From NCBI GenBank assembly GCA_963663405.2, contig CAXXSM010000004.1, positions 29,450 to 93,449 on the forward strand: 64,000 nt of DNA. The letters are read 5' to 3'. Origin of the DNA: a bacterium (GTDB lineage Bacteria > Hinthialibacterota > Hinthialibacteria > Hinthialibacterales > Hinthialibacteraceae). The notes under the pieces were generated by a model that was not told the origin of the DNA, made no database searches, and saw only the letters and a list, made by a program, of their open reading frames with translations. This document shows positions 14,850-45,602 of this stretch, one piece after another. Position numbers and translations under genes: made by a program. The stretch's first letter is position 1; every line of letters begins with the position of its first letter.

Positions 14850-14859
14850 GTTTTAGATC

Positions 14860-20500: not shown

Positions 20501-20528
20501 CTTGTTCGAAAAAGAGGAGAGCCAATGA
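17488..20528 (+). CDS. DUF1156 adenine DNA methyltransferase; two frameshifts near 18295 and 18400
   Basis: HLWWARRPL, DMFAGGGAIPLEA, bridging frame PVAYLWTRTVKCKNPSC, TDPPYYD. Confidence 0.9.
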
Positions 20529-23428
20529 ATGCAACGATGATTAAGCCGTGGTTGGAAGTGGTCACTCTTCATCCTGATGTTCTATCGGACGAATTTTCCG
20601 AAGACATTTTTGCTCTGGATCTAGGACCATTAGCGGATGGCAATAAAAATGTGGCTGCAGTCTACCGTGATCCCGAGCATTTTTTCCGGGCATCGTATCT
20701 CACTACTGGCCTTAAGTCTCTCCTGAAGGACGTACTTTCACGCCTAAGTGGTGGCGTAGGCAACCGTGTGCTTAAACTGATTACACCATTCGGCGGCGGT
20801 AAATCGCACACGTTGGCGTCGCTCTTTCACGCTTCTAAAAACCGCCAGGCCCTCGATGTGATCCCAGAGGGCAAAGATCTTCCGAATTCCGGCAAGACAA
20901 ACATTTGTGTCTTCGATGGCCAGTTTTACGATGCTACCAATGGCAAGAAGATGCCTGGAACCGACAAGTACGCACGAACCTTGTGGGGATGGATGGCGTG
21001 GTCTCTCGGCGGACTAAAGGGCTACGAAATGTTGTGCAAACAAGACCAAGCACGCGTCGCTCCTGGCGGTGATGAGATCCTGGAATTACTTAAGAACGGC
21101 CCGAACCTGATTCTTCTCGACGAAGTGCTCAACTATCTTATAAGCGCGGGTGGTTTGAAAATTGAGCAGACTACGCTCCGAGACGAAACCCTTACTTTCC
21201 TACAGCGACTTACCGTGGCTGTTGGCAATACTAATAATACTGCTCTAGTTTTTTCGCTTCAATCGAGTAAGAGAGAATCCTTAGAATACGTGAATCTTCT
21301 CCAAACCGTTGACCACTTAGCCGCTCGCAAAGACCAACGCCGTGAGCCAGTGGAAGGCAATGAGATCCTATCCGTCATCCAGCGTCGTCTTCTCGGCAAG
21401 ATTCCCAACGAACCAGACGCTTCTCCCGCTGCGACAGCGTATCAAGAAATTTTCACACAGATGCGTAGAGCTTATGCTCAAAGCACAGCCGAGGGGAAAC
21501 AGGCCGAAGAAGAAGGACTGGCTTTGCGGGATCGTGTGCGCGCGTCTTATCCCTTCCATCCCGCCCTGATTGACGTAATGCGGGAACGCTGGGCCGCGAT
21601 TCCCGACTTCCAGCGCACACGTGGAGCTTTGCGTTTTCTTGCCGCATGCCTTCGTACGTCACACCGGGAAGGAAAGAGCAGAACTGTCCTTGGCCCAGGT
21701 GATGTGCCAATACATGACGCCGAAGTGCGACTTGCCTTCTTCAAGGAAGTTGGTCAACAGGCAGACTTCCAAGCGGTTCTGGAACACGATCTTATAGGAG
21801 CTAACGCTCGTGCGCGCCGAATTGATGACCGTCGTTCTAGGGAAACACCTTCAGAAGTGGGCAAACGTCATGCAATGCGGTTGGCCACAGCTATTCTCAT
21901 GTATTCTTTCGGGGGTCTACGTCGTGAAGGCGCGAATGATATGTTGCCTCCGGGCATCAGCGAGTCGGAACTTCTCTCTGTCTGCGTTGGCCCTGATTTT
22001 GACAGTACAACTGCGCTTGCGTGCCTTAAGGAACTTAAGGAGCAGTGCCTTTATCTTCACTTCGATGGGGTGCGTTACTGCTTCAAGAAAGATCCTAATG
22101 TCACGCTTCTAGTCGAACAAGAAGCAAATTCCGTCGCTCGCAATGAGGATTATGTCCGTGCGAAGATAAAGGAAATGTTGGAAGAGCGTCTAGCAGGTCA
22201 CCATGAGGCTATTGTATGGCCTGTCAAAACGACTGATATTCCGAATGAGGATCCAAGATTCTTAATTGCTTATCTACCCATTGAATTTAGTGGGCAACCA
22301 AAATCTGTGCAGTTTGAGAAGGCAAAGGAATTCTTTGAAAAGTACGGAGATAAGCCGCGCAAACATCGAAACGGACTAGGGCTTGCAGTTCCATCCGATG
22401 ATCAAATTGAGATACTACGACGATCTGTTCGCTATCTTTTAGCCATCGAACAAGTCAAATCAAAGGCCAAGCAGCTTAACCTTACTGACGAGCAAAAGAG
22501 TCAATTGCGAGAACGGGAATCCACAGAAAAGGCAATCACAGAATCGGCGTTTCTTAAGTTATACACAGATGTATGGCTGCCTCGCACGGAATCGGGTGGC
22601 ATAGACATTGATGCTGTATCGGTGGGTGGTCGTCCTCTTCAGACTACACTTAACGATAGGAAACAAGCTGCAATCCACGAGCGCGTAATGGAATTGCTTT
22701 CGGTCGTCCACAAGCGCCTTTTTGGAAGCCTCGCTCCAACAAAAATTTTGGAATTGTTCAAATTAGGTGAAGGAGATCAACCTCGTTATGGCATTCGATT
22801 ATCAGAAGTTGTTGAAGGTTTCTACTCGTTTATCGGGTTTACTCGACTGACTTCCCAGGATGTGATCCGTAAATCTGTTGCGCGTGGTGTCAAGGAAGGT
22901 ATTGTTGGCTACGTATCCGGCATGGTCCCTGAACTTGAGGATAACGGTAAGTTTAAAATCGCACCGGAACGAATCAGATTTACGGTTAATGTTGCGGATG
23001 ACGAAATCGATCTGGACACCGGATTCATCATGCTTCCGCATTCTGTACCGTTACCGAGTCCACAACAAGCCTGCCCGAAATGTGGTAAGTTCCCTTGCGA
23101 GTGTGTCGAACCACCAGCAGTCTGTCCCAAATGTGGACATATCCCATGCCAGTGCCAGAATCCTCAAGTTTGTTCGAATTGTGGCCAGTGGCCTTGCGTG
23201 TGTGAAATAATACCTCCCCCCATTCTGGAAACAGAGAAAGTGGTCCAAGTCTCATTCTCAGCCGATCGAAATGAGCTTTATACGGCCTGGAACGCTGTAG
23301 CGAATCTCGCAGATCTTGCTGGCAAGGTTAATATCACGATCCATGCAGAATCAGTAGAAGGATTCGATAAGAGTAAACTTCAAAATGGTGTGATGGAGCC
23401 TCTTCGGGAGGCGGATTTAATAGAGTGA
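20525..23428 (+). CDS. DUF499 AAA ATPase with three C-terminal CxxCGxxPCxC repeats
   Basis: TPFGGGKSH, LILLDE, YPFHP, FQRTRGALR. Confidence 0.92.
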   Translation: MNATMIKPWLEVVTLHPDVLSDEFSEDIFALDLGPLADGNKNVAAVYRDPEHFFRASYLTTGLKSLLKDVLSRLSGGVGNRVLKLITPFGGGKSHTLASLFHASKNRQALDVIPEGKDLPNSGKTNICVFDGQFYDATNGKKMPGTDKYARTLWGWMAWSLGGLKGYEMLCKQDQARVAPGGDEILELLKNGPNLILLDEVLNYLISAGGLKIEQTTLRDETLTFLQRLTVAVGNTNNTALVFSLQSSKRESLEYVNLLQTVDHLAARKDQRREPVEGNEILSVIQRRLLGKIPNEPDASPAATAYQEIFTQMRRAYAQSTAEGKQAEEEGLALRDRVRASYPFHPALIDVMRERWAAIPDFQRTRGALRFLAACLRTSHREGKSRTVLGPGDVPIHDAEVRLAFFKEVGQQADFQAVLEHDLIGANARARRIDDRRSRETPSEVGKRHAMRLATAILMYSFGGLRREGANDMLPPGISESELLSVCVGPDFDSTTALACLKELKEQCLYLHFDGVRYCFKKDPNVTLLVEQEANSVARNEDYVRAKIKEMLEERLAGHHEAIVWPVKTTDIPNEDPRFLIAYLPIEFSGQPKSVQFEKAKEFFEKYGDKPRKHRNGLGLAVPSDDQIEILRRSVRYLLAIEQVKSKAKQLNLTDEQKSQLRERESTEKAITESAFLKLYTDVWLPRTESGGIDIDAVSVGGRPLQTTLNDRKQAAIHERVMELLSVVHKRLFGSLAPTKILELFKLGEGDQPRYGIRLSEVVEGFYSFIGFTRLTSQDVIRKSVARGVKEGIVGYVSGMVPELEDNGKFKIAPERIRFTVNVADDEIDLDTGFIMLPHSVPLPSPQQACPKCGKFPCECVEPPAVCPKCGHIPCQCQNPQVCSNCGQWPCVCEIIPPPILETEKVVQVSFSADRNELYTAWNAVANLADLAGKVNITIHAESVEGFDKSKLQNGVMEPLREADLIE

Positions 23429-23667: not shown

Positions 23668-25079
23668 CGTAAGGTCAAAAAACTCGAATGACAATCAAGT
23701 TCTTGTAGAATGCAGACTTGAGATCGGAATTTTGAATAAATCTTGATCGAGCGTGATCCAGTCTTGTACAGTTTTGGTATGTTTCGGTCGTGAAAAGTCA
23801 ACAATAGGCGGTTTGGTGGACAGACTTTCGGAATGGCTTAACTGAAGTAAAGCGCATTACGCTGCATCGCGGTAATAGTATCGTAACATACCACCGAGAC
23901 GCTCACGAGATTGTATGTCACCTGAAATTCTCCCGATTTCTTCACCGGGATCAATGATATGGTTATTCAGGCCTTGGTGGTTTCTTTCATGATGATAATG
24001 AGCAAGGAATTCGCGAACCGCATTACGCAGGGAACGGGCGCCAAAGAAAATCATTCGGTTTAAACATTCCTCTTTTAAGGATCTATGATATCTCTCCAAA
24101 TGGGAATTCAAATTCGGGCTCCGCGGTGGTAAACGGACCGGCTTCACACCGGCGTCTTTCAACAATTTTCTAAAAGCCGGACAGAATATCCCATCCCGAT
24201 CCATGAGCACATAACGCATGCCATTGAGAAATCCATCTTCGGCGTCGGTTAGATTTCGTCCGATTTGCTTCATCCACGCTTCCTCAGGATTGGAGACACA
24301 ACCAGCGAAATGAACGCGCCTTGTCTTGAGTTCCATCACGAAGAGCAGGTAGATGGTAATCAACCCGCCTATTGTCCAGATCTCAACCGTCGTAAAATCA
24401 ATGGCGGCTAAAACGTCCCAATGAGCTTGGATAAATGTGGACCATGTTGTCTGCTGCTTGCGTGTCGGCGCCGGTTCGATTCCATGTTTCTGGAGAATAT
24501 TGCCGACACTTTGATCCGAAATGTCATGACCAAGGTTGGCCAGCGCGCCTTGAATCCGGTCATAGCCCCAGGTGGGATTTTCTTGGGCCATACGGAGAAC
24601 GAGTTCGATGACCTCTTGTGAGATTGGAGGGCGTCCGATCTTCTGTCGATTTTCACTATAATTCCATTTCTGAGCCACAAGTTCACGATGCCAGCGAAGA
24701 ATCGTATCCGGGGTGAAAATTGTCGAGATTTCCTTCAAAATTTTCCGTCCCAGAGTTTTTCCTTTGACCGCGAGCCGGGCCCGCTGTTTATCGTTGAGTA
24801 GAATACGCTTTTTGCCTTGGACTTCGAGGAGTATATCGACCTCTGTCCGCAGAAACTCGATTACCTGTTGTTGCTCTCGATTTACCCAACCTGCAATGAT
24901 GAGCAAAAAGAATTGCCATGGCTGTAAAATGAAATTCATCGTATCCCCAGATTCAAAGTGGTGTCATAGAATCGGGGTAGGGAAGCGGTATGTCAATGGG
25001 CCGAAATCATGGATTTGTAATTTTTCCAAGTCTTTTAATCAAGGGCGGTTACAGTTCAGTCGACTTTTTTGACCTTACG
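23668..25079 (-). mobile_element. IS with rve integrase-core transposase (IS481/IS3-like)
   Basis: 24-bp inverted repeats CGTAAGGTCAAAAAACTCGAATGA / CGTAAGGTCAAAAAAGTCGACTGA (22/24); no target duplication. Confidence 0.88.
23857..24939 (-). CDS. Integrase-core (DDE) transposase
   Basis: NPTWGYDRIQG, AIDF, MDRD, PNLNSHLER...KEECL, RERLGG. Confidence 0.9.
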   Translation of the reverse strand: MNFILQPWQFFLLIIAGWVNREQQQVIEFLRTEVDILLEVQGKKRILLNDKQRARLAVKGKTLGRKILKEISTIFTPDTILRWHRELVAQKWNYSENRQKIGRPPISQEVIELVLRMAQENPTWGYDRIQGALANLGHDISDQSVGNILQKHGIEPAPTRKQQTTWSTFIQAHWDVLAAIDFTTVEIWTIGGLITIYLLFVMELKTRRVHFAGCVSNPEEAWMKQIGRNLTDAEDGFLNGMRYVLMDRDGIFCPAFRKLLKDAGVKPVRLPPRSPNLNSHLERYHRSLKEECLNRMIFFGARSLRNAVREFLAHYHHERNHQGLNNHIIDPGEEIGRISGDIQSRERLGGMLRYYYRDAA

Positions 25080-26870
25080 CCATAGTAGCGGACTTTATGG
25101 AAGCCACGGGGGAGCACATGCATCACGAAGCGCCGCAGAAATTCTTCGCCCCGCATGCGGATAGTTCGCCAATGCTTCTCTTTGAAGGTCTTGTAGCGGA
25201 ACGTTACGTGGGTATCGTCCATTGCCAGAAGCCGATGGTTGGAGATCGCGATGCGATAGACATAGCGCCCCAGGTAATTCAAGATGGCTTTCACACCTTT
25301 GCCATACGGTTTGCAGAACGAGTTCCATCCCGTATTCCAGACTTTGGCATCGATCTCCCGGAAGATATCCGGCTCCGCTTTTTCGAGCCGCTCTTTCAAG
25401 CGCCTGCGAACGAGCAAGCTGAGCGTTCCCACATCGAGGAGCCATTTCGGGTGGCGGAGTTCCATCCAAGAGTGGCCGTCCTCACTCACCCCACCGGCGC
25501 TGACTAATAGATGGACATGCGGATGCAAATCCAGATCCCCTCGCCAAGTGTGCAGCACGGTCAGGATCGCCGGGGTGGCGCCGGCGACCTTTGGATTGCG
25601 CATCAGATCCATGACACAGGAAGCCACCGTCGTCATCAGCAACCCATAGAGAATCTTTTGATGAGCCAAAAAGGCCGCTCGAATGGGCTGGGGAACTGTC
25701 ACGATCACATGAAAGTAACGGCAGCCAAGCATCTGGTCTTCCCGCTTCTCGATCCATTTCCGCATCGCCTGGGAATGACAGGACGGACAGGATCGATTGC
25801 CACACCCGTGATACACCCAGAAGTCTTCACCGCAGTCCTGACAGTGATAACGATGCCCTCCCAGTTCCGCCGTATGGCAGGCCATGATATCGTGCAGCGC
25901 TTTGCGTTGCGACGGCAAGAGACGCTTGCCTTGTTTTTTAATGTAAGCTGGACCGAACCGGCGAACCACGTCGCCGAGTTCGAGGTTCGATGAAGTGCAA
26001 TTCATGATTCCTCCTAACATCAGATCGGCGAACACGGCATTGACACGTTCCTGCACCTCGTGGCGAAGTGGCTCCGTCAAATGGGTGTAGATTTGGGTGG
26101 AACGAAGACTGGAATGACCGAGAAGAATCTGGACGATTCGTATGTTCTCGCCGCTCTCCAGCAATTTGGTGGCAAAGGAGTGGCGTAGCTGGTGCGGCTT
26201 GATGTCGTTTGTCAAACCGATTTCCTCGCAGGCCAAGCGGAACGCTTGACAGAGTGTCGACGCGGGGATGTGGTTAGAGCCCTTTTGGTTGGGGAACAGC
26301 CAAGTGGGATGGTGATGCGTAAACCAGAGTTCTTTCATCGGATCCAGCAACGCGGCGGGGAGAGGAACGATTCGCTCTTTGTCATCCTTCCCAATAATAC
26401 GTAGACACATTTGCTTGGAGTCGATCTTTTTGACCGGAAGCGAGACGGCTTCACTGGTTCGGAGACCGCATGTGTACATCAAAGCCAGGGCCACCCGATA
26501 GGGCGATTTCCTGACGACGGAAAGGAGGGCGCGAACCTGGGAATGGGTTAATGGATGTGGCAGACGCTTTTGGCGGGGCTTGCGAATCTTTTTTTTGCAA
26601 ACAACGGCCACCCCAGATCCAACGTGGTTTGATAGAGAAATTTCAGCGCGCTGTAGTGAACCTGAAACGTTCCGAGAGCGACTTTCTTCACGTCTCGCAA
26701 TTTCAGTAAATAAATCCGGACGAGTTCCTCGCTAATGCATTCTGGCGAGCAACCAAATTCTTGGGCGAATGAGGCGATGGCTCGGACGTATTCTTTTTGC
26801 GTGCCTTCGCTCAATCCTGCTAACGTCATGTCTTCGCGCAACAGTCCTCGGAATTCTGTTTCACCGTCGA
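25080..26870 (-). mobile_element. Truncated IS91-like element: tyrosine recombinase plus Zn-binding IS91 (HUH) transposase
   Basis: Integrase N-terminal domain (LREDMTLAGLSEGTQKEY), frameshift near 26590, then GLRTSE/HQLRHSFA/LGH...TQIY. Transposase C..C...C..RSCPSC, LHTW...HPHVH, YLGRY, RYYG, cut at 25080. Confidence 0.88.
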
Positions 26871-28045: not shown

Positions 28046-29269
28046 TCAAATTTTCGTTTGATCGATATCCAGCAAGCTAATTCTCAAAATTTTCTTCTCC
28101 AAATCCTGAATCCGCTGGGCGATCAAATAGCCTTCTTTCTTCCAGACTCTCGCTATTCGAATTTTCTTGAGCGCTTCCTCTATTCTTCCAGTCAGAAGAT
28201 TTCTCATGGAATCACGCAACGATTGATTGATCGCGATTTCCCGATTCTCAATCCTCGTTTCTAACTCCTCGATTTCCGATTCCAATCCAACCTTTTGTTG
28301 TTCATCCAGTATTTCTTTTTTCAATTTTCTTCGTTCTTTAAGACTCATTTTTTCCATCAATTGGCGCTGTTTTGCAGAAAACAGACTGGAATCCAGAGCC
28401 AGGAGACGTTCATTAAGTGTTTTGAGAGAATCCAGTGATTTCTTCAAATAGCGGTTCGATTGAAACGTCATTTGTATTTTCTGAGCGAGCAAGGATCTTG
28501 CCCGGGGATTTGCCCCATAATGTTGAATGGCAGAATCCAGTTCATCAAACGATGCCTTTGTCTCTTTCATATTGGACAGCATTTTTTTGATTCCTGGAAT
28601 ACCGAGTTTCTTCAAAGAGTTCGCTTCAGTAGCTAATTCTTCATTTGGGATTCGATTGAAATGATTTTGGGAGAGTTTGCGTAATTTGACCTTCAGAGTT
28701 TTATCCGGATTCCTTACACTCATCTTTGCAAGCGCTTTCAGCAGAAAAACAAGAAATACGATTACAAGAAAAGGATATAGAAAGGGATTGATTGTACTTG
28801 ATAAGTCATACAAGTTAGGATCGATGGTTGTGACCACCAACATCGTCACAATCAATGTCAAAAGAAAAGAGAGAATCGGATTCATTTTCAAATACAAAAA
28901 ACTGTGATAGACCATAATCCCAAACAGAAACGTTAAAAGGACGATCGCCACCGTTCCGAATGAAGAAAGAGTAAAGTGATATTTCTTTTCCACAGAGATC
29001 ATGGAAAAAGCCAATGCCAATCCAATCCCCAAACTGACCGCCCTGCCCGCTCTACCCGGAAATTTCTTTCGGAGACTGAAATGAGCGATTCCAATAAAGA
29101 CAAGAGCAAAGACGAAAAAATCGATGACAGTGGAATAACGAAGATAAACATGGGTTGGATCAAAGATGGTTTCCCATGGAGTCAAAGCAGAAAATCCATT
29201 GGGAATCGACGATCTTGTGATTACCCACGCGTGATGATCTATCCCATTTGCGATTCGATTTCCAATCAT
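28046..29269 (-). CDS. Multi-pass membrane protein with C-terminal coiled coil
   Basis: About five hydrophobic helices then ~220 aa charged helical region; ATG at 29269 lies 31 nt after a TATA motif (29293-29300). Confidence 0.85.
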   Translation of the reverse strand: MIGNRIANGIDHHAWVITRSSIPNGFSALTPWETIFDPTHVYLRYSTVIDFFVFALVFIGIAHFSLRKKFPGRAGRAVSLGIGLALAFSMISVEKKYHFTLSSFGTVAIVLLTFLFGIMVYHSFLYLKMNPILSFLLTLIVTMLVVTTIDPNLYDLSSTINPFLYPFLVIVFLVFLLKALAKMSVRNPDKTLKVKLRKLSQNHFNRIPNEELATEANSLKKLGIPGIKKMLSNMKETKASFDELDSAIQHYGANPRARSLLAQKIQMTFQSNRYLKKSLDSLKTLNERLLALDSSLFSAKQRQLMEKMSLKERRKLKKEILDEQQKVGLESEIEELETRIENREIAINQSLRDSMRNLLTGRIEEALKKIRIARVWKKEGYLIAQRIQDLEKKILRISLLDIDQTKI

Positions 29270-29346
29270 GGATTCATATTTGTTCCTACTCAAATATAAA
29301 TTTTACGATTGGAAATCCGTACAAAATTCGATTGAACTGTGAGAAG

Positions 29347-29486
29347 ATTTCTCATGGAAACTTATTTTCGGTTGTGATATGTATGAAAAAAAATTGGATT
29401 ATTGAATGTATGTTTTTGTTTTCTATATAGTAAGTAATAAAAGAAGTAACAATTAACTTATTTTATAATTACGTTCCACAGGAAAT
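29347..29486. promoter_or_regulatory. Putative archaeal-type origin: inverted mini-ORB pair flanking an AT-rich element
   Basis: GTTCCACAGGAAAT on + (29473-29486) and TTTCCATGAGAAAT on - (29347-29360); ~110 bp very AT-rich between; directly upstream of cdc6. Confidence 0.6.
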
Positions 29487-29525
29487 CTTCCCTTACAGTT
29501 CTCTGTTTTCACTCTTTCAGGACAA

Positions 29526-29540
29526 AAGAAGATTTAAATA
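29526..29540 (+). promoter_or_regulatory. BRE+TATA-like motif upstream of cdc6
   Basis: AAGAAGA-TTTAAATA, 32 nt before an ATG that has no Shine-Dalgarno site. Confidence 0.6.
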
Positions 29541-29564
29541 GTAAAAGGCTCCTTCCTATGCAGC

Positions 29565-30836
29565 ATGAGTCAGAAGATTTCCTATGGAACCGGTACATCT
29601 ACCTCGACAGCGAGCACAGAATCCCTGATACAAGAAGCGTTTCTCCATATCGAAGACAAGAAAATCACGCTGAATCCTTCCTATCTCGATGACGAAAAAC
29701 TGACGGAATCCGAACGGGTGACGGTTCTGCAGGAGATCTTTCAGCGCAATATCCGCCAGCAACAACTGCATCGATTGGCCAAATACTTGTCCCCGGTGCT
29801 CGCCGGTGATTCGCCGGCCAATCTCCTGATCTACGGCCCTTCCGGGGCGGGCAAATCGGTCACCTGCCTACATTTTCTCAACGCTTTGGCTTCCATGTGC
29901 GGCGTCAAACAGATCCAGTTTCAGTATTATTATGTGGATCTCACCACTCCGAAAACTTGTTTTGGCGCCTTGAACGAGCTGGCCTTATCCCTAGATGGGA
30001 CTACCAAACGGTACCGTAAGGGCATCGCGCTGGACCAGATGCAGGAGACTGTCATCCGGGCGCTGACGGCCCGCCATGATCTGGTCTGCATTGTGGTGGA
30101 CGAGGTCGACAATATCACCTCCAACAGCGATCTCTTTTACACATTTTTAGCCAAAACCTTGCCCAAACGGATTCCAGTCCGCCTGTTTTACCTCTTGTTG
30201 ACCAACCGGATCGAATGGGATAAAACCCTTGATCCCCGAATTCTCTCCGTGCTCAAAAAGACGGATATCATTTTTGAGCCCTACGACGCTATGGATCTAA
30301 TTGAAATCTTAAATCTCCGAGTGGAGAAAGCCCTCGACACCCGGAAAGTCGATCCCGCGGCGATCCGGAAAATCGCCGCGTACGCGTCACGGGAGAATGG
30401 CGACGCGCGCAAAGCCATCGAGTTGCTGGTCAAAGGAGTCAAAATCGCCGAAGATTCGACCGGTTATTTAGGCGTCCGTGAAGTGGACGAAGCGGATTCC
30501 TTGCTGGAGATCGACAAAACCGAACAGTTAATCCACGCTCTCGCGCCTCAGCAGAAATGCGCTCTCTTAGCCTGCTATACAGGGTTGCAAAACTCACGAG
30601 AAAAACTCTGGACCGGGCCCGCCTATGATATTTATCGATCCATTTGTGACCGGCGGAATGTGCGAACACTCACGCAGCGGCGGTTCTCCGATATCGTCAG
30701 TTTTTTGGATATCTACGGTTTGATCAACGCCCGGGTGATCTCAAAGGGGCGCTACGGAAAAACCCGGGAGCTGTCTTCCTCTCTCCCAGAAAAAGTCGTT
30801 CAGAAGGTCTTCAAGACCTGCGAACAGAATCTTTAA
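29565..30836 (+). CDS. cdc6: Archaeal-type Orc1/Cdc6 replication initiator (AAA+ plus winged helix)
   Basis: IYGPSGAGKS, VVDEVD, LDPRILS, FEPYD...LIEIL..R, GDARKAIELL, LTQRRFSDIVSFLDIYGLINARVISKGRYGKTR. Confidence 0.93.
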   Translation: MSQKISYGTGTSTSTASTESLIQEAFLHIEDKKITLNPSYLDDEKLTESERVTVLQEIFQRNIRQQQLHRLAKYLSPVLAGDSPANLLIYGPSGAGKSVTCLHFLNALASMCGVKQIQFQYYYVDLTTPKTCFGALNELALSLDGTTKRYRKGIALDQMQETVIRALTARHDLVCIVVDEVDNITSNSDLFYTFLAKTLPKRIPVRLFYLLLTNRIEWDKTLDPRILSVLKKTDIIFEPYDAMDLIEILNLRVEKALDTRKVDPAAIRKIAAYASRENGDARKAIELLVKGVKIAEDSTGYLGVREVDEADSLLEIDKTEQLIHALAPQQKCALLACYTGLQNSREKLWTGPAYDIYRSICDRRNVRTLTQRRFSDIVSFLDIYGLINARVISKGRYGKTRELSSSLPEKVVQKVFKTCEQNL

Positions 30837-31629: not shown

Positions 31630-32403
31630 ATGATCATTACACGAAGGAATCCAAATCCTCTGATTGCGGCGATCGATCGTGTTCACGATCGAGTGACAAC
31701 AATCCAGACCATTGCGCGGAATTTTTACTTGGCAGTGCTGCGGATGCGCTACCGGTGCCCCCACTGCGGCCAAAAAATGAAGGTTCACTCTCCTACGACA
31801 TGGCGATGTTCCTGTGGCGTTCAACTCGATCCGACAATCGAGTTTCAACCAAGCCCCTGTTGCAAAGCCAGGTTAACGAAGAAAGTGTATCATTACGTCT
31901 GTACGCAATGCGGCGCTGCGGTTCCGTCCAAATTTCTCTTCGATGAAAGGCTGTTCGACGCGGACTATTTCAGAGAGCGGATGAAAGAATCACGGGAACG
32001 GAAACAACAACTCCGGGAGAGGCTGAGAAAACAACTTGCTGATTCCCGCTCGAAAGAACTGGAATTGGAGGATTATCCCCAATTGGACACCATCCCAGGA
32101 TTGGAACAAGATTTAAACCGGTTGATTGGAACCGAATCGGGGAATGATGTGTTTGCGTTTAATCGTTCGGAGACGTTCTGCATGACCGATTATCACCGAG
32201 CCATTTCCACTCTTGTCAACCAGCGCGGTGTGCTCTTTTCACAAATCCCCGCGTTGCATCCTTCCACACCGAAGGATCGAATCTGGCGGTTTATCACCTT
32301 GATTTTCATGGAACATGACCGGGAAGTCCATTTGCGGCAAGAGGGGGATGATATCTGGGTGTTCAAACGGGATTGCGATGAAGAGATCGAAAACCTTAAA
32401 TAG
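31630..32403 (+). CDS. Multi-Zn-ribbon protein with ScpA/kleisin-like C-terminal winged helix
   Basis: CPHC, CSC, SPCC, CTQC; C-terminal RFITLIFMEHDREVHLRQEGDDIWV. Confidence 0.75.
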   Translation: MIITRRNPNPLIAAIDRVHDRVTTIQTIARNFYLAVLRMRYRCPHCGQKMKVHSPTTWRCSCGVQLDPTIEFQPSPCCKARLTKKVYHYVCTQCGAAVPSKFLFDERLFDADYFRERMKESRERKQQLRERLRKQLADSRSKELELEDYPQLDTIPGLEQDLNRLIGTESGNDVFAFNRSETFCMTDYHRAISTLVNQRGVLFSQIPALHPSTPKDRIWRFITLIFMEHDREVHLRQEGDDIWVFKRDCDEEIENLK

Positions 32404-32770
32404 AACATCTATCCAAGAGATAAATGTGAAACTAACACAAAAGGATTTGGAGTTTATTCAACGGTTGAAAGGTCTGTTTGAGGAGAACGATCTGTCGATC
32501 GAGCTGAAGCAGACCGATCCGAAGACGTTGGTGTTGCGAAAAAATTACGGGACGAAAATAGAGCGCGCGTTTGGCATGACGCGCCAGGGAATCCGATGGA
32601 GGTTCCAACGGTTATTCAATGATATTTACGTGAACGCGTATACAACGATCTATTGGTTAGAATCCAATTTTGGCTCATACCTACGATCTCAGGCGCTTGA
32701 AATCGCGAAAGAACGAGTGACATTACGCAAACGAGTCAATCATGCCAATCAATCCTACCGCCCCAAATAA
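32378..32770 (+). CDS. Hypothetical HTH-like protein
   Basis: IERAFGMTRQGIRWRF; overlaps both neighbouring genes. Confidence 0.75.
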   Translation: MKRSKTLNRTSIQEINVKLTQKDLEFIQRLKGLFEENDLSIELKQTDPKTLVLRKNYGTKIERAFGMTRQGIRWRFQRLFNDIYVNAYTTIYWLESNFGSYLRSQALEIAKERVTLRKRVNHANQSYRPK

Positions 32771-33185
32771 AATGGCTTCGACAAAAATCGAGATCAATCA
32801 CAACACGATAGCCCGGTTAGAATCCGCGGATGAGTTGGCGAGAATTCTCTTTCCAGATAACTCTAATCATCAAAAGATTTTTCTATCGATCTTTGTGGAA
32901 CTGAAATGGGCCAAGGATCAGTTCTTGCCGGTCCTGGATCCCATCGTGGATCAACTGGGACTGAGCCGCCGGAGTTTGGAAACGGTTCGCGCCAAAATGC
33001 GGCGAATGGGGCTGATCGATCATGTCTCCCGGTTCAACAAAACCTACGGCTATCGGGAAGGCTGGGTGTTTTCAAACAAATTTCCCCGGGCCTTAGTGAA
33101 AGTGGCCAATTTAGTTCTAAAATTCCGTGAGAAGAAGGATTCCGTCCAGGAACAGAAAGAAAGGGATCTGATATTTTACCTTTGA
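32742..33185 (+). CDS. Winged-helix DNA-binding protein
   Basis: IVDQLGLSRRSLETVRAKMRRMGLI; alternative start at 32772. Confidence 0.8.
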   Translation: MPINPTAPNKMASTKIEINHNTIARLESADELARILFPDNSNHQKIFLSIFVELKWAKDQFLPVLDPIVDQLGLSRRSLETVRAKMRRMGLIDHVSRFNKTYGYREGWVFSNKFPRALVKVANLVLKFREKKDSVQEQKERDLIFYL

Positions 33186-34239: not shown

Positions 34240-34503
34240 ATGAAAGAAACCAATCGAACAAGCAGTACCGTAGAAAGCCAGCCCCAGATCGTTGTGTCAC
34301 GAGCCGTATACGAAACATTGACACCGGAGGAAATCCATCACGCGTTCACGATTCTCTTTGAGAAGATGAAGGTTCCCGATCCAGCCAATCCCAACCTATG
34401 GACCGTCCAGATCAATGGAAGCCGGTTGTGGGGCATCCTGGATGAAGGAGCCGGAACCGATGGACAGAATCTCGTGTCGTTGATTTTTCCAGAGGATTAC
34501 TAA
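34240..34503 (+). CDS. Small PEDY-tail protein, paralog of 5807
   Basis: GGAGG RBS; high similarity to copy 1. Confidence 0.85.
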   Translation: MKETNRTSSTVESQPQIVVSRAVYETLTPEEIHHAFTILFEKMKVPDPANPNLWTVQINGSRLWGILDEGAGTDGQNLVSLIFPEDY

Positions 34504-34535
34504 TTCAATAAAAAAAATGAGGAGGTATCAAAACA

Positions 34536-34973
34536 ATGAAAAACACCAAAAGAAAAGGAAATCGAACGATGAAGGTCCATTACACTATCGTGGATGGAGA
34601 ACACGAGTACTGTGAGACGATCTTCATAAAATCGGATGGTGAAAACAAAGAAGATCAAGCTTACAAGGAACTCGCTGCGATGTACGCGTATGATGCGGAG
34701 GAAGAACGTGAAATCATGGCCAACCTTAAAAGCGATGGAATGGCGATGATCGGTTGCCGGGCCATCAAGGATGTTACAGTCATGGATTTGGATGAAGTAA
34801 CCGTCTTTGTGCGCGGTGGCGTCATCCAGGATATTCAAAACATCCCCGCTGGCGTAAGAATCCGTGTCCAGGATTACGATGTGGACAGTCTCACCGCACA
34901 AGAGCTACGCGAGAAAACGGAACCGGATGAAGAAGGTGATCCATGTATGGTCTCCACTTGGGGAAGTGAGTAA
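34536..34973 (+). CDS. Acidic hypothetical protein, paralog of 6111
   Basis: GAGGAGG RBS; similarity to copy 1. Confidence 0.85.
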   Translation: MKNTKRKGNRTMKVHYTIVDGEHEYCETIFIKSDGENKEDQAYKELAAMYAYDAEEEREIMANLKSDGMAMIGCRAIKDVTVMDLDEVTVFVRGGVIQDIQNIPAGVRIRVQDYDVDSLTAQELREKTEPDEEGDPCMVSTWGSE

Positions 34974-35102
34974 TCCACTTTCCTTTTTCTCACTCCTCGA
35001 ATCATCCTACAAGTTATCCTTCCCCCGCATAGATGATGCGCTACCTCAACATCAATGACATCGATGTTGATTAGTTCTATTTGAATCAATTCATAGGCAA
35101 AA

Positions 35103-35137
35103 GGCCGGATGGAACTCAGGTTCTATCCGGTCTTTTT
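35103..35137 (+). terminator. Internal terminator-like hairpin
   Basis: GGCCGGATGGAAC...GTTCTATCCGGTC + T5. Confidence 0.7.
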
Positions 35138-35181
35138 CAATTTCACCGTAAACCACACGAATCAAAGAAAGGAAAAAGAAA

Positions 35182-35418
35182 ATGTGCATCAAAGAAATCC
35201 AATGCCCGCATTGTGGAAATGAAAATGTGAAACGTATCCAGCTCTGCGTCGTGCTCCCTTCCAGCATCTATCGGAATCTCTACCAGGACGATCGTGGTTT
35301 GATCTGGGCGGAAGAGGAAATCGATTCTGTCGAAGACGGAATCAATCCAGTAATGGAATATCTCTACTGCCAAAACTGTGAGAAAGATTTCACCGATCCT
35401 GGAATCAAGATCCAATGA
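35182..35418 (+). CDS. Small acidic Zn-ribbon protein, paralog of 6753
   Basis: CPHC...CQNC. Confidence 0.85.
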   Translation: MCIKEIQCPHCGNENVKRIQLCVVLPSSIYRNLYQDDRGLIWAEEEIDSVEDGINPVMEYLYCQNCEKDFTDPGIKIQ

Positions 35419-35588
35419 GCTGATAACACTCATTGGAGCCAAGAATAAAGACGAACAGCTCTTAAGCTAAATAGATCCGCCTTCTTTTTGTTTTAAGAGA
35501 TGATATGAACATTGTTACCCACCAACGCTGCAGAGAATCAATTTATGTTACTAGGTTTTACCATTTTAGCGAACGTATCAAGCGATAT

Positions 35589-36329
35589 CTAATTTTTCAA
35601 TTGATTGAAGCGATTGGGATTAGCGTTGTATAAATCATTGGCTAGATGTTCAATGAATTGGTAGGGATCTTGGTTCGTCATTAATATCCTCAAGTGTCCA
35701 GTATCCTGAAAAAATAATTCTCTTTGACGTGGATCAATTGCCTTTTTTGAAAGAAAAAAGAAACAGAAAAAACCACCCAACATTATTCCCACCCATGCAG
35801 TTTCATCAATATCTGACATTCCTATACAGTGTATCATATTAGATGTGATGTCGATATGCTTTGAGGAATAGAGTATGACACACCCGTAAGTTTCTGTATC
35901 CCCTGGCACCTCCGAAAGGAGCATATTCCTGATAGTAGTCTCATGTTTTCCTAGGTTAATAGATGAGAATCCGTCTTGTGTACTTATTCCAACACGCCAA
36001 AGGATCGAAAGTTGAAATAATTTAAACTTTTTATAATCAATTTCACATTCAAAACCTTTTGCACTTTTTGTTGTGGTAGCAATGCATTCTCTCTCATATA
36101 GAACTTTGTGAGCATAACCTTCCCATTGGCTTAATTTGTTTTCACAATTCTTACATAATAATTTTTCACGGATTCCTTTTTGTACAATACGAGGATGCTT
36201 CCTATGCTCCGTGGAGAGAATATTAAAGCGATGCTTGCAGTCATAAAGCTGCATTTTTTCGTAAAAGAATTCCGGAATCACATGCGAGTTACATAGTTTT
36301 GCTTGTTGTAAGCATAGACGGCATTTCAT
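35589..36329 (-). CDS. HNH-like Zn-binding endonuclease-family protein (cargo)
   Basis: CRLC...SHVIP...LLCKNCEN; AT-rich gene. Confidence 0.7.
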   Translation of the reverse strand: MKCRLCLQQAKLCNSHVIPEFFYEKMQLYDCKHRFNILSTEHRKHPRIVQKGIREKLLCKNCENKLSQWEGYAHKVLYERECIATTTKSAKGFECEIDYKKFKLFQLSILWRVGISTQDGFSSINLGKHETTIRNMLLSEVPGDTETYGCVILYSSKHIDITSNMIHCIGMSDIDETAWVGIMLGGFFCFFFLSKKAIDPRQRELFFQDTGHLRILMTNQDPYQFIEHLANDLYNANPNRFNQLKN

Positions 36330-36506
36330 AATATCGTACATTCTTTGCAATCTTTCGTGAACATCACCTTATTAGTATAAATTCTTTTAGAGGTAGTCGA
36401 TCAGAGAATCCTACTTTTAAATTATTTGATTCAGCATACCTTTATCATCAGTTCCAACTGTCAGGCTTGCCAACTTATAACGATATTTTTTACATAAATA
36501 TCACCA

Positions 36507-37412
36507 TCAATTAGCTTTATAGTTAGAGTGCTTGATCTGTGTCACACTCATGTCGCTGTGTATTTGATAAATATATATGTGAAAGTTCTCACCACTAATA
36601 TTTAGTTGGTTCTCGGCATCATCCTGAAGTTCCTTAATACTATCGTAAGAAAGGTTAAGTGGATTGAAGAGCATACTGCGAACCACAACAAGAACTGCGT
36701 CAGCTTCTTTAATGCTAACTTCCATATATCCCAATCTTGCCTTGATTGATCTAGCTTCCATTGATGTAGAAACACTTGGTGCAATCACGGCTACGCGTAG
36801 TCCAGACGATGTAGTATTTTGCTGATCTGAAACATGTGGTGGCTGTTGTGTGGTTCTTGAGCTATCTCCCGCTTGCGCAACAGTAATTAAAAGTAGTTCC
36901 ACGTGTTTGCGTAATACCTCCTTTTCTTCATCTGTAAGTTTATGTAATCCCATTTCATGTTGATTAGCTGGAGGGAAAATATTGTCAAATGTAAGTAACA
37001 CTTTGCCTGGAGTCATGTTGGCTTGTTTCAAACTTAACTCCATATGCAAAAGTTCTTCCAAAGAGTATTGCTTCCAATCAATGTCTTTTTTTGAAGTCTG
37101 CACTATTCGCTTTGCAGTGTTTATCCTCGCTTCAGCATCAATTAACTGTTGCAAGGAGGAATTTTGCCAATCAAGGGTGATCGCGTGTTCGCGTTTGATT
37201 CTTGCCACAGTGTCAAGCCGCAATTCAATGTTAGATATTTCAAGAAGGGAAGCGTTTCGCCAGTCAACATCTATGCCATGGGTTTTCTTGATACGTAAAG
37301 CGGCGCTTTCACGCATATGAGAATCATCTATCTTTGATTGTCCATCTACATAAGTGATGGTAAAAAAGAAAAAAGTGATAAAAGTTGGAAGTAGTTTTAA
37401 ATATGTTCTCAT
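36507..37412 (-). CDS. Secreted hypothetical protein with three ~31-aa repeats (cargo)
   Basis: Signal peptide MRTYLKLLPTFITFFFF; repeats RI......DW...SL..L...E; GGAGG RBS. Confidence 0.75.
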   Translation of the reverse strand: MRTYLKLLPTFITFFFFTITYVDGQSKIDDSHMRESAALRIKKTHGIDVDWRNASLLEISNIELRLDTVARIKREHAITLDWQNSSLQQLIDAEARINTAKRIVQTSKKDIDWKQYSLEELLHMELSLKQANMTPGKVLLTFDNIFPPANQHEMGLHKLTDEEKEVLRKHVELLLITVAQAGDSSRTTQQPPHVSDQQNTTSSGLRVAVIAPSVSTSMEARSIKARLGYMEVSIKEADAVLVVVRSMLFNPLNLSYDSIKELQDDAENQLNISGENFHIYIYQIHSDMSVTQIKHSNYKAN

Positions 37413-37663
37413 TTCAATCAATCCTCCCTTGAGTACTTGATGCATCAGTTCTGTCTACTTCATACAATTGGAAAAAGAGTACGAGAATGACTTTGATTAA
37501 TTGGCCACTCTTATAATTGTTATTTTTTGTGACGCGATCAATTCAATTATGGTTTCTTTTTTATTATAGGCTCAAATAAATGGAGTATACAAGCTGGAGG
37601 TATCAAAAAATAATATATGTAAGATTTACGAACATTTACAGTTTTTTTAATTTCACACATTAA

Positions 37664-37689
37664 CCTGGCTCTTTTGCCAGGATTTTTTT
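37664..37689 (+). terminator. Terminator-like hairpin before the AAA gene
   Basis: CCTGGC-TCTTTT-GCCAGG + T7. Confidence 0.65.
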
Positions 37690-37706
37690 ATTAGAAAGGA
37701 AACGAG

Positions 37707-38801
37707 ATGAATACTATCACCTGTCAGCTTTGTGGAGAGTCAATCCATGGCTCCTTGTATGGTCACTTGGGTGAATGTCACCGTACAACAGCGCAAGAGT
37801 ACCTGAAGCAATATCCGGGCGCGCCTTTGGTGGCTCCCGAATTACTCAACCAGATTCAATCCGGCAAAACCGTCAAACGAACACCGGTTCAAGCCACAGC
37901 GGAATTCCGGATACATGACGCGGCGCTCAAAAAGAGAAATGGCGCAAATCCGATAGTGCCTAACTCTGATCCGCATTACCAATTCCCGCCCGAGGCCGCT
38001 TACCTGATCCACTCCATCAACCACCAGGAAAACGTGATGATCGTCGGTCCGACCGGCACAGGGAAAAGTTCGCTGGTCATGCAGCTCGCCGCCCAGACCA
38101 ATACGCCTTTGCGGCGCTGCAACCTAAATGGCGAGACTACGGTCTCTGATTTCTTGGGACGCTGGACTGTTCGCGGCAAAGAGATGGTCTACAGCGAGGG
38201 CATCCTGCCCACCGCCATGAAGAATGGAGATTGGTTGCTGCTCGATGAGATCGACGCGGCGCTGCCGAATATTCTATTCGTGCTCCAAAGCGTGCTCGAA
38301 GAATGCGGCAAGCTCACACTCCTTGAAAAAGACGGCGAGATTATCGCTCCCCATCCCGATTTTCGCATCATCGCCACTGCCAATACGCTTGGTAATGGAG
38401 ATGAGTCCGGACTATACGCTGGAACGCAGATACTCAACGAAGCCTTCAAAGACCGCTTTGACACAGTCATATATTTGGACTACCCGGATGAGAAGACCGA
38501 AACCGAAATCCTCTCTCAAAAAGTCTCCAACCTAAAAAAGACTGACATCAGACGACTGGTGAAATGCGCTCGCCAGGTCCGGGAAGCGGCGGAACGCGAA
38601 GAGTGCTATTGCAGTTTTTCCACCCGTCGCTTGCTCGCATTCGCCAGGAAATACGATCAACTCGGTAATTTAACTAAAGCGTTGGAACTGACCGTTCTCA
38701 ACAAACTCTCCCGTGATGACCGGCGCGTCGTTGAAGAAATCGCGCAGCGGCGACTGGGAGATCTCATGAATCCCCAACCGAAAGGAGCAAATGAATCATG
38801 A
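37707..38801 (+). CDS. MoxR/CbbQ/CobS-like AAA+ ATPase, intact
   Basis: Zn finger C..C...H...H, GPTGTGKS, LLLDEID, IATANT, FSTRRL. Confidence 0.92.
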   Translation: MNTITCQLCGESIHGSLYGHLGECHRTTAQEYLKQYPGAPLVAPELLNQIQSGKTVKRTPVQATAEFRIHDAALKKRNGANPIVPNSDPHYQFPPEAAYLIHSINHQENVMIVGPTGTGKSSLVMQLAAQTNTPLRRCNLNGETTVSDFLGRWTVRGKEMVYSEGILPTAMKNGDWLLLDEIDAALPNILFVLQSVLEECGKLTLLEKDGEIIAPHPDFRIIATANTLGNGDESGLYAGTQILNEAFKDRFDTVIYLDYPDEKTETEILSQKVSNLKKTDIRRLVKCARQVREAAEREECYCSFSTRRLLAFARKYDQLGNLTKALELTVLNKLSRDDRRVVEEIAQRRLGDLMNPQPKGANES

Positions 38802-40679
38802 AGAATCTAAGCGGATTAGAAACAACCTTGGAACGTGTTGGTCGAATCTTGTCACGCAAGTACAACATCTCGGTCCAATGCAAAGGAAACGAATGCAAGA
38901 CCGACGGCCGGACTATCTGGCTGCCGGCGCTGCCGGACGAGATCTCTGAGTCGTTATGGAGTTTGGTCCGTGGCGAGCTGGATCATGAGACCGCCCATAT
39001 CCTCTTCAGCGACTTTGATGGCCGCATGAAGAATTTCAAACAGAAATGGGGCGATTTCGGATTCGACACACTTAATGTCATTGAAGACGTGAGAGTCAAT
39101 TACGCCATGCAGAAGGAGTATCCGGGTTCCCGTCACAACATCCTGCACAGTATCGCGGAGATCACTCGTACCCATCCCATCGATCAAATGCCTCTCCCAG
39201 TCCGGTTCTTGTGTGGTCTGTTCCTCGCTGGAATGGATCTGCTCTATGACCAGTATGGCGAAGACGCGATCGGAATGGTGGAACAATTCAAGAACGATGC
39301 GGAGCGGTTCAAATCCCTCCGTAACACTGACGAAGCCTGCGCAATGGCGGAAAGTATCCTGGAACGCCTCAAGCATAAAGCTGAGCAAGAAAGACAACCT
39401 TCAAATTCAAAGCAGCAAAATAGCGCGGAAAAGAACCAAGAATCACACTCACAATCCTCATCCGGTGAATCCAAACAAGAATCAACAGAGAAGGAGCAGC
39501 GATCAGCAAAATCCGCTTCCTCTAACGGTCAAGAAGAATCTGACAATCGGCAAAACAGTTCTGGGGAACAAAAGGATGATTCTATGGATAAACAAAAATG
39601 GTTCTAGTTCAGATGCGCATTCAAACATGAAAAGCAGTCCACAAGATGAATCTGAGAATGGAAATCAAGGAGCTATGGAGCAAGCCCTACACGGACAATA
39701 CTCATCCACCGGCCATCCATTCGAGCTCCAAGGCACTATCAGAGAGCAAGTCCAAGAAGAATTCAGCAATGGAACAAACCAAGCCTACCGGGTATACGAT
39801 CCATCGCTGGATAAAGCTGTCACGCCTCTATCATTGGATAACGGTGAAACCTATCAAAACCTGAGCAATGTCGTTCGGCCTCATGTAGGCGCTCTTCGTC
39901 AGCAGTTGATTCGAACTCTCCGCTCGCGCGATACCCGGTTCTGGGTCAACGACCAAGAAGAAGGCCAGGTCAATAGCAAAAGGCTTTATACGCTACTCAA
40001 CCAGGGCTCGAACAAAGTCTTCCGACAAATCCAGGAATGCGAATCGGACTCGGTGGCGGTGTCGCTTCTTATCGATCTATCCGGCTCGATGAACGGCCCA
40101 CGCATCTACCTGGCCCGCCAGGTCGTCATTCTGTTCGCTGAAACACTCAACCAGCTGCGTATCCCGTCAGAGGTGATCGGTTTTACAACCGAGCCTTCCA
40201 AACGGGCCTTCGCTCGATTGACACGGGAAACGGGGATGGATTTGCAACAACTCTCCACACTCTACACCCGTTTCTTTCCCTGTGTCTATTCCATCTTCAA
40301 GGCGTTCGACGAACCATTCCGAGCGTTGAAACCGCGCGTTCCCGCCATGAACGCCCTGGAGTACACGCCCATCGATGACGCTATCATTTTCGCCGCTAAA
40401 CGGATCGTCTTTCGGAAGGAAACGCGAAAAATCATCCTTGTCCTTACCGATGGAGAACCGTATAGCGGAAATCCAACGATGCAGCTGGCTGTCATCAAAC
40501 ATCTTGTAGAAAATCTGCGCAAATGCGAACAGGCCGGAATCGAGTGTGTGGCCGTTGGCATCCAAGCGGATTACGTAAAGAATTTCTTCAAAGAGAACGT
40601 AGTCGTTCAAAACCTGCCCGAACTCCCCAAAGCGTTCTACACGAAGTTCTCGGAATTGCTCCGCAGAAACCGCAAATAA
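38798..40679 (+). CDS. CobT-like HExxH + vWA protein; one frameshift near 39595 in an A run
   Basis: LDHETAH; DLSGSM; LTDGEP; two overlapping ORFs join in the linker. Confidence 0.88.
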
Positions 40680-40721
40680 CCTGCAACAAATAACCATTTA
40701 ATTTCGAAAGGAGATTTATCA

Positions 40722-41192: not shown

Positions 41193-41215
41193 AAAAAACC
41201 AGAAAGGAAAACACC

Positions 41216-45422: not shown

Positions 45423-45602
45423 GGCTGTTGTTTCTATATAGTGGTGATGAAGTGATATATAAATGTTACGATTTTGAGCCGAAAAATCTACAATCCTCTT
45501 ACAACATAGTATTTTTTTTTTTACTTATTCATGGCTTATATCATAATACCTAAAAATTACAAAATAAGAAGCCATATTTTTTCTATGTTTTGTGATTAAC
45601 AC

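Follow-up and report, generated by a model that had tools for sequence, protein, structure and literature searches.

The window analyzed here, a 64-kb stretch of DNA (64,000 nucleotides of contig CAXXSM010000004.1, assembly GCA_963663405.2), derives from an 8.44-Mb, 170-contig, 82% complete genome of the Hinthialibacterota and carries a full-length orc1/cdc6 gene (29565-30836, (+), 423 aa; hereafter cdc6). Divergently upstream lies a gene for a membrane/coiled-coil protein without a family assignment (28046-29269, (-)); its open reading frame (ORF) extends to a TTG at 29293, and the ATG at 29269 was chosen as its start. The DNA between the two genes and the first codons of cdc6 hold repeated boxes resembling the origin recognition boxes (ORBs) of archaea. 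A sequence-only reading of the window had placed a candidate oriC here, with the standard archaeal layout of inverted boxes around an AT-rich element next to cdc6. That reading was right in kind and wrong in setting. The inverted ORB-like boxes, the AT-rich element and the genuine cdc6 all stand; as a statement about the host it fails, the organism being a bacterium with its own DnaA and the locus lying within a mobile, multi-copy integrative element. Overlooked at the time were a box at the cdc6 start (box C), a distal box, an 18-nt extension of the repeat, a palindrome in the middle of the spacer and the bacterial nature of the genome.

The two boxes first reported were confirmed where they had been placed: GTTCCACAGGAAAT is read at 29473-29486 (+), and TTTCCATGAGAAAT is the reverse complement of 29347-29360. 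Both match the mini-ORB core, with the TTCC...GAA pattern of the literature. Exact matches to TTCCANNNGAAAT occur four times in the window (at 28199, 29347, 29474, and 29577), all within less than 1.4 kb near cdc6, against 0.51 expected; none of 100 shuffles reached four. Allowing up to three mismatches to GTTCCANNGGAAATCTTC gave five matches against 1.12 expected (0/100 shuffles reached five), namely the same four loci and an unrelated site at 2975 with three mismatches. The two reported boxes are genuine, far beyond chance. Two further sites that had been listed as weaker variants, at 29282 and 29303, scored -12.7 and -6.2 bits on a matrix built for the family and are not sites, given that the real boxes of the window span 19.6-27.4 bits (15.0 bits for the distal box).

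The full repeat unit comprises 18 nt, GTTCCAnnGGAAATCTTC (family matrix consensus kTTCCAYMGGAMATYTWC). Box A (29343-29360, (-), TTTCCATGAGAAATCTTC, 19.6 bits) is inverted relative to box B (29473-29490, (+), GTTCCACAGGAAATCTTC, 27.4 bits), the strongest ORB-like box of the window. Box A scores better in the other genomic copies of the locus (25.9-27.7 bits), and the sequence of box B is identical in all four copies, whose cdc6 genes have diverged to 0.29-0.41 synonymous substitutions per site (dS). Box C (29573-29590, (-), GTTCCATAGGAAATCTTC, 26.3 bits) lies over cdc6 codons 3-9 and is a candidate autoregulatory operator. The distal box (28195-28212, (-), ATTCCATGAGAAATCTTC, 15.0 bits) is located within the 3' part of the upstream gene; the C141 and C47 copies carry a site of the same score at the corresponding position, and C110 carries a site of 14.3 bits there. 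Boxes A and B enclose an AT-rich spacer (29361-29472), a candidate DNA-unwinding element (DUE). The ~110 bp of very AT-rich DNA described earlier proved to be 112 bp with 80.4% AT, compared with 56.5% for the window, and its best 80-mer (83.75% AT) ranks in the top 0.011% of the window's 80-mers. A central conserved motif, TTTTCTATATAG (29419-29430), occupies the middle of the spacer; across the family it takes the form of the palindrome TTTCTATATAGAAA, lying between a T-rich left arm and an A-rich right arm. Between boxes B and C, ~25 nt before the ATG, lies the promoter-like element TTTAAATA (29533-29540, (+)).

Conservation of this arrangement was assessed in loci drawn from species genomes (9), the phylum, and metagenomes (80). 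Among 95 loci with a tblastn match, 68 included the N-terminus and at least 450 nt upstream, and 55 were non-redundant, the window included (near-duplicates dropped at ≥90% over ≥300 nt); four of the 55 belong to a divergent clade at 43-48%. Unseeded counting of 8-mers in the 55 upstream regions returned top words that tile the box: CCACAGGA in 30/55 loci (1.2 in shuffles), ACAGGAAA in 34/55 (1.4 in shuffles), and GGAAATCT in 34/55 (2.6 in shuffles). A second motif, TTCTATAT, was present in 30/55 loci (1.7 in shuffles). When one mismatch was allowed, 46/50 loci had it within 110 nt upstream of box B, compared with 9.7 on average and never more than 18 in 200 shuffles. The matrix found 3.09 boxes per locus (0.02-0.07 in shuffles), with at least three boxes in 48/55 loci and none in one. 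A (+) box preceded the ATG by 70-135 nt in 50/55 loci, and the complete (-)(+)(-) order was present in 46/55: box A, an AT-rich spacer with a TTTCTATATAGAAA-type palindrome, box B, and then box C at the start codon. The proposed boxes were thus borne out both by conservation upstream of orthologous cdc6 genes and by the matrix scan.

The A-B spacer measured 86-262 nt (median 143) at 70% AT, compared with 56% in the flanks, and in relatives a block of 79-84% AT, with the palindrome inside it, lay 30-80 nt upstream of box B. A further AT peak was found 50-70 nt downstream of the box B start (50 loci). The B-C spacer had a median of 79 nt (range 53-99, 46 loci) while the position of box C relative to the ATG varied from -24 to +17; because the distance to box B is held and the offset to the ATG is not, box C is not conserved on account of its coding function. 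The upstream gene is not kept beside cdc6 in relatives and differs between loci, so the box region travels with cdc6. In a matrix scan of the whole 8.44-Mb genome, 512 matches reached 9 bits; the 11 that reached 25 bits all belonged to the four cdc6 copies, and the site ranking next scored 22.1 bits. Clusters of five or more matches were confined to the cdc6 loci on contigs C4, C110, and C141, the fourth copy being split over two contigs with 3 + 2 matches. Since all 11 top boxes lie at cdc6 copies, Cdc6 has no evident target beyond the region of its own gene.

The promoter-like TTTAAATA element was spotted by eye, uncounted, in most rows of an alignment anchored on box C. In the window and its relatives, TTTAAATA or TTATATA stands ~25-30 nt 5' of the cdc6 start, with an A-rich run before it, and resembles an archaeal BRE/TATA promoter (B recognition element and TATA box) as much as a bacterial -10 element. 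Many relatives also have TTTCATGTGGAGG just 5' of box C, a combination of a degenerate box and a GGAGG ribosome site (by eye, uncounted).

The cdc6 product belongs clearly to the initiator family. It matched NCBIfam TIGR02928 at 246.1 bits (cut-off 181.3) over model positions 20-365 of 366, and Pfam identified Cdc6_C (7.3e-21), Cdc6_lid (3e-11), and an AAA domain. The archaeal equivalog models (NF001625 and others) scored below their cut-offs, so the protein is a family member and no ortholog of a named archaeal Orc1. Its PDB matches, over residues 64-413, were 2qby_A (best, 1.7e-45) and 2v1u_A (2.8e-45), which represent the archaeal initiators Sso Orc1-1 and Ape ORC1, both crystallised with ORB DNA. 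The alignment with archaeal Orc1 is continuous over 64-413, with no inserted domain. The AAA+ set tested (Walker A/B, sensor 1, Arg finger, and sensor 2) is present in full, and the ATPase residues G91, G94, G96, K97, D179, E180, N214, R225, and R282 are invariant in 21 family members. Motifs were assigned from the 2qby_A alignment (Walker A, G91/G94/G96/K97; Walker B, D179/E180; sensor 1, N214; GDAR, R282). The residues expected to contact DNA are equally invariant in the 21 members: Q371, R372, and R373 of the helix-turn-helix (HTH) QRR motif, and G395, R396, and G398 of the wing GRxG motif. In the alignment TQRRFSDI pairs with TQRRVSDI of Orc1-1, GRYGKTRE with GRYGKTKE, and KGIA with TGLS, and the G-I of the initiator-specific motif is conserved. 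Mutation of R341, R365, or G120/L121 in Orc1-1 weakens origin binding (PMC3089459, excerpt); under an inferred numbering offset, the contact residues of Cdc6 would correspond to these positions. The genomic cdc6 copies differ at a ratio of nonsynonymous to synonymous change (dN/dS) of 0.042-0.045. Judged by its sequence, the protein is a genuine full-length Orc1/Cdc6 with intact ATPase and DNA-contact motifs.

The genome around this gene is bacterial. It encodes a bona fide DnaA (226.8 bits), and sigma-70/FecR, prepilin-type, and IS91-type genes lie on the contig of the window. Four copies of cdc6, with 96-100% protein identity, occur in the genome, each within a ~26-kb element; the further copies of this element are on C110, C141, and C47+C86 (88-91% nucleotide identity), with partial copies on C161 and C38. 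In the window the element spans 27507-54082 (blastn against its own genome), includes window-specific inserts at about 35424-37675 and 45475-48083, and is truncated at its left end by a region rich in insertion sequences (IS). The C110 copy has a tyrosine integrase just past its cdc6-side end, the point at which the window copy is cut by the IS-rich region. Cargo includes ArdC, a HerA/VirB4-like ATPase, and a MoxR-CobT/VWA pair. Scans of the window for tRNA genes and Rfam families returned nothing. The cdc6 family is patchy, occurring in 5/35 genomes of the phylum (own genome counted), and its named relatives span at least two bacterial phyla: metagenome-assembled genomes of Hydrogenedentota, complete chromosomes of Desulfarculia, and the isolate Desulfocarbo indianensis.

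These findings decide against the literal form of the sequence-only reading, the chromosomal oriC of an archaeon. Layout and box core do match archaeal origins. A bacterial host with its own DnaA, bacterial genes along the contig, a locus in four diverged copies within a multi-copy integrative element, a patchy cdc6, and bacterial relatives nevertheless refute that reading, to which we attach practically no probability. Any origin function of the region would belong to a mobile element inside a bacterium.

Downstream of cdc6 follow three conserved genes. The first (31630-32403, (+)) encodes a 257-aa zinc-ribbon/winged-helix protein with 37-47% identical homologues beside cdc6 in 26 loci. Its structural model has a predicted local distance difference test (pLDDT) score of 76.9; the C-terminal domain matched the AF1382 and ScpA winged helices at E 3e-3 to 6e-3, which is not significant, and a weak ScpA lead came from Atlas (0.77). 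The second (32315-32770, (+)) encodes a small protein with an HTH-like segment and 44-61% identical homologues in 13 loci; its true start probably lies downstream of 32315, as homology begins at residue ~31-37. The third (32742-33185, (+)) encodes a 147-aa winged-helix DNA-binding protein (54-64% identity, 13 aligned homologues) whose model (pLDDT 78.8) gave only generic MarR/SlyA and TFE-alpha winged-helix fold matches at E ≥3.7e-3. None of the three has a Pfam, NCBIfam, or PHROG family, and the fold searches with the 257-aa and 147-aa proteins returned winged-helix matches only, all above E 0.001.

Another reading would make the locus a conflict or defence system of the Orc/Cdc6 + HerA/FtsK kind. 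Bacterial Orc/CDC6-family ATPases coupled to HerA/FtsK, a restriction endonuclease (REase), and winged helix-turn-helix (wHTH) proteins occur in mobile neighbourhoods, with a proposed role in immunity (PMC10853773, excerpt). By analogy, the ATPase would bring a restriction-like apparatus to DNA, with the boxes serving as sites for self-marking or regulation. The element in the window does contain a HerA/FtsK-like ATPase (42841-44823) in addition to the wHTH neighbours. In the described systems, however, the AAA+ core and the wHTH are in every case separated by an inserted, inactive REase (PMC10853773, in the part available), whereas the 423-aa Cdc6 is continuous over 64-413 and has no insertion. 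No nuclease domain was detected in the conserved core (Pfam, NCBIfam, PHROG), the HerA-like gene lies 12 kb away and has no match in 11 relative loci (tblastn), and the origin-like cis layout is left unexplained. We regard a defence function as very improbable.

Comparison with characterized systems places the locus closest to archaeal origins. Archaeal origins consist of an AT-rich DUE flanked by ORBs (PMC5333045, excerpt). Sulfolobus oriC1 has three ORBs, a 130-bp ORB3-DUE-ORB2 unit in which the ORBs are inverted, an adjacent orc1-1 gene, and an essential motif midway that is bound by an accessory protein (PMC12141716, excerpt). The bacterial locus shares with Sulfolobus/Saccharolobus oriC1 the three boxes, two of them inverted around an AT-rich region of similar size (130 bp in oriC1, 148 bp here measured from box A to box B), a conserved short motif near the midpoint, an adjacent initiator gene, and an initiator of the Orc1-1 type (best PDB match 2qby_A). 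It differs in that the host is a bacterium with DnaA and only control-level matches to MCM, the replicon is an integrative element, and one box lies over the start codon. The central motif TTTCTATATAGAAA also differs from the 11-bp ucm of the published oligonucleotide (PMC12141716, as excerpted). A longer ORB extension is missing as well: the sequence-only reading was correct that there is no G-string, and the box instead continues into ATYTWC and then pyrimidine-rich sequence. Because many archaea use the mini-ORB alone (PMC3089459, excerpt), the mini-ORB subclass stays open to the locus despite this difference. In sum of archaeal-origin features, the locus has repeated TTCC...GAA boxes, inverted around an AT-rich element next to orc1/cdc6, and lacks the G-string extension, an MCM partner, and an archaeal host.

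The mini-ORBs of Pyrococcus and Methanothermobacter offer a second comparison. Pyrococcus ORB/mini-ORB repeats contain invariant 'TTCC' and 'GAA', and their 13-bp core, for example TTCCAGTGGAACT, corresponds to TTCCACAGGAAAT here (PMC1904270, excerpt). Unlike those origins, the bacterial locus has only 3-4 boxes and no large cluster, carries a conserved 5-nt 3' extension, and belongs to another domain of life. Haloarchaeal and Methanosarcina plasmids with orc1/cdc6 replicons (PLSDB) likewise combine a mobile replicon with repeated boxes upstream of the gene. A Halomarina plasmid (locus L135) has three copies of GTTTCACCGGAAAC, not all on one strand, in the 420 nt before orc1; by reading, the sequence agrees with the bacterial core at 10/13 positions. 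The differences are considerable, with 22-32% protein identity among the matches listed and a G-rich extension on the archaeal boxes. Applied to three archaeal loci, the bacterial 18-nt matrix had no match in two (L134, L135) and one of 9.1 bits, 791 nt away, in the third (L133), with none near orc1.

The logic of the arrangement has bacterial parallels too. In dnaA-oriC regions and iteron plasmids, the initiator has its boxes beside an AT-rich unwinding element and uses them to repress its own promoter as well. The cdc6 locus resembles these replicons in logic and differs from them in the family of its initiator and the sequence of its box. TCCACA is common to this box and the DnaA box; a DnaA-box reading was rejected, as two middle positions that a DnaA box needs vary while GGAMA is fixed.

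We hypothesize, with a moderate degree of confidence, that the region is the replication origin of the element fused to an autoregulatory operator of cdc6, laid out like Sulfolobus oriC1. Segment 29343-29590 would be the cis-acting centre of an archaeal-type Orc1/Cdc6 replication module on a bacterial integrative element. Conserved contact residues and the co-occurrence of box and gene suggest that Orc1/Cdc6 binds the 18-nt boxes via its winged helix and initiator-specific motif. Boxes A (-) and B (+) would face each other across the AT-rich block with its central 14-bp palindrome, and the layout suggests that this block is unwound once the element has excised and replicates alone. One of the three conserved DNA-binding accessory proteins encoded downstream may bind the palindrome. 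As neither element nor host appears to encode MCM, a host DnaB-type helicase or another route would be needed to serve as the loaded helicase. Cdc6 would also repress its own gene via boxes B and C, plus the degenerate box just upstream of C; we propose this because the promoter and start of cdc6 lie between boxes B and C, whose spacing is fixed. The earlier caveat that the sites could be only autoregulatory accordingly fits part of the region, where B and C stand around promoter and start at ~79-nt spacing.

Carried further, that caveat becomes the main rival to an origin, a regulatory switch, which we consider unlikely overall. On this account Orc1/Cdc6 acts solely as a sequence-specific transcription factor, like SNJ2 Orf8 or Sulfolobus Orc1-2, and together with its winged-helix neighbours controls its own operon and the dormancy or excision of the element. 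The boxes would be operators and the spacer promoter DNA, with the element replicated passively or by another system such as a relaxase-driven rolling circle. There are precedents: the haloarchaeal provirus SNJ2 (Betapleolipovirus) encodes an Orc1/Cdc6 homologue in a three-gene module (Orf4-Orf7-Orf8) with a wHTH repressor, which switches from lysogeny to induction (PMC10123103, excerpt), and Orc1-2 is a non-initiator regulator (PMC9738581, PMC6061795, excerpts). Like SNJ2, the bacterial element integrates and has an Orc1/Cdc6 homologue beside small DNA-binding proteins, with wHTH neighbours and an integrase, a likeness judged on gene content. Unlike it, SNJ2 has an archaeal host, its Orc1 acts at the promoter of a neighbouring gene, and the available part of its description contains no inverted-box/AT-rich origin layout such as the one found here.

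Besides the SNJ2 precedent, several results weigh against an origin, and some of them favour a switch directly. The conserved module, cdc6 and its three zinc-ribbon/winged-helix/HTH partners, encodes no helicase, primase, or polymerase; DNA-binding accessory genes always follow cdc6. Boxes B and C, at their fixed spacing of ~79 nt, surround the promoter-like TTTAAATA and the start codon. Three loci of the 43% clade (L017-L019, from genomes G012 and G003) keep only box C, over codons 3-9, and are without boxes A, B, and the palindrome, with an AT-rich TATA-like stretch seen by eye before box C; since box C alone is kept, the operator and origin-like parts seem separable. Sigma-70-like hexamers (TTGAAT-18-TATAGT) occur within the AT-rich spacer, where a sigma-70 promoter scan found 2 sites against 1.9 in shuffles, no excess, and so is uninformative. 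Every relative located on a long contig or a complete chromosome is integrated, and Replic_Relax genes are found in relatives of the element.

Other points concern replication itself and the reach of our analysis. The best match to MCM (PF00493) in the host scored only 30.5 bits, and 14/14 control genomes, including E. coli, also pass the cut-off; with the genome 82% complete, the absence of MCM is unproven. No MCM was found among 86 ORFs of six relative loci. Among the PLSDB matches listed (100 of 421), no close relative on a plasmid appeared; all were archaeal with at most 32% identity. A phage collection gave zero matches and IMG/VR only eight at the P-loop level, so the element is not a recognised virus. 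A 31-kb Desulfocarbo scaffold, considered as a possible circle, was ambiguous, since its end overlaps (92 + 123 nt) lie within a putative IS transposase; it has only ~9.5 kb in common with the chromosomal copy. Hairpin potential around the palindrome failed to reach significance in both the window (z -0.18) and L065 (z -0.10). L007 (z -2.25) and L012 (z -3.02) gave stronger values, so a cruciform at the palindrome was rejected as a general property. Finally, the seed of the matrix was a box of the window itself, and the threshold of 9 bits was our choice; the unseeded 8-mer counts are independent of both.

Three observations argue for an origin over a switch alone. A regulator would be expected to have targets beyond its own promoter, yet 11/11 high-scoring boxes in 8.44 Mb are at cdc6. 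The inverted box A, 86-262 nt upstream across a ~50-nt block of 79-84% AT and a palindrome, is kept in 46/55 loci although the upstream gene is not conserved, an arrangement that belongs to an origin rather than to a simple operator. The initiator ATPase motifs, lastly, are all invariant.

Individual copies of the locus show further peculiarities. In C110 (44409-44909, corresponding to window ~29456-29465), an insertion of ~501 nt resembling a miniature inverted-repeat transposable element separates the palindrome from box B; it has terminal inverted repeats, a CTTATTTTA target duplication, and eight further copies at 98.7-100% identity on other contigs. The cdc6 gene of the same copy (C110:43032-44301) has one additional base in an A-run inside the GRYGKT wing codons, which puts the last ~27 residues out of frame. 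Origin region and gene may be decaying together in this copy, or the frameshift may be a homopolymer sequencing error. The fourth copy of the element is split between the ends of C47 (59236) and C86 (39251), inside the AT-rich spacer at the palindromic block. A metagenome contig (L076) matches the Desulfocarbo locus L012 only as far as the palindrome centre, ~170 nt before cdc6, where unrelated GC-rich DNA abuts TTCTATATAG; this single junction may represent a recombination or processing breakpoint at the palindrome.

Elsewhere in the window, region 11334-23428 resembles a defence island, with an SNF2 helicase carrying NOV_C (1171 aa), a DEAD/Helicase_C_2 helicase, a DUF1156 protein, an N6_N4 methylase-like protein (717 aa), and a DUF499 protein (967 aa). 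A second module of a MoxR-like AAA_5 ATPase and CobT/VWA (5855-10945) matches that of the element (34312-41553) at 77-84%, and its VWA gene seems fragmented. A 1.76-kb IS encodes a 520-aa fusion of a tyrosine recombinase and an IS91-type Y2 transposase (25049-26611, (-)) and has 17 further full-length genomic copies at 88-90% identity. The HerA/FtsK-like ATPase of the element (42841-44823, (-)) has its best NCBIfam match in CedD, at 69 bits against a 600-bit cut-off, with VirB4 and TraD weaker. CedD, a DNA-translocating ATPase in the NCBIfam text, is part of an archaeal DNA-exchange system, and the ATPase found here may thus add to the archaeal traits of the element. A gene at 54217-62931 (-), just beyond the element's conserved part, encodes 2904 aa with FGE-sulfatase, fn3, caspase, and PKD domains and contains internal repeats of ~1.5 kb (56320-58831).

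Replication initiation is one of the sharpest divides between the domains of life, with DnaA/DnaB in bacteria and Orc/Cdc6/MCM in archaea and eukaryotes. A literature search, with most subscription journals outside its coverage, found no description of a bacterial Orc1/Cdc6 origin; should its role be regulation alone, the locus would be, as far as that search shows, the first example of Orc1 as a regulator in bacteria. More tentatively, with the odds in our view slightly against it, an archaeal Orc1/Cdc6-ORB module may have crossed into bacteria and work without MCM as the origin of integrative elements in several phyla (Hydrogenedentota, Desulfobacterota/Desulfarculia, and possibly Planctomycetota). 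A conserved family of bacterial mobile elements with a complete Orc1/Cdc6 and its box-spacer-box arrangement raises the question of how an Orc-type initiator could start replication with a bacterial replisome. If such a crossing is true, the initiator would have been rewired to pass a melted origin to the bacterial DnaB-type replisome, perhaps via the zinc-ribbon/winged-helix partners and the central palindrome. The system is small and defined in sequence (three boxes, one palindrome, one initiator, and three small partners), and a cultured host, Desulfocarbo indianensis, has a related copy.

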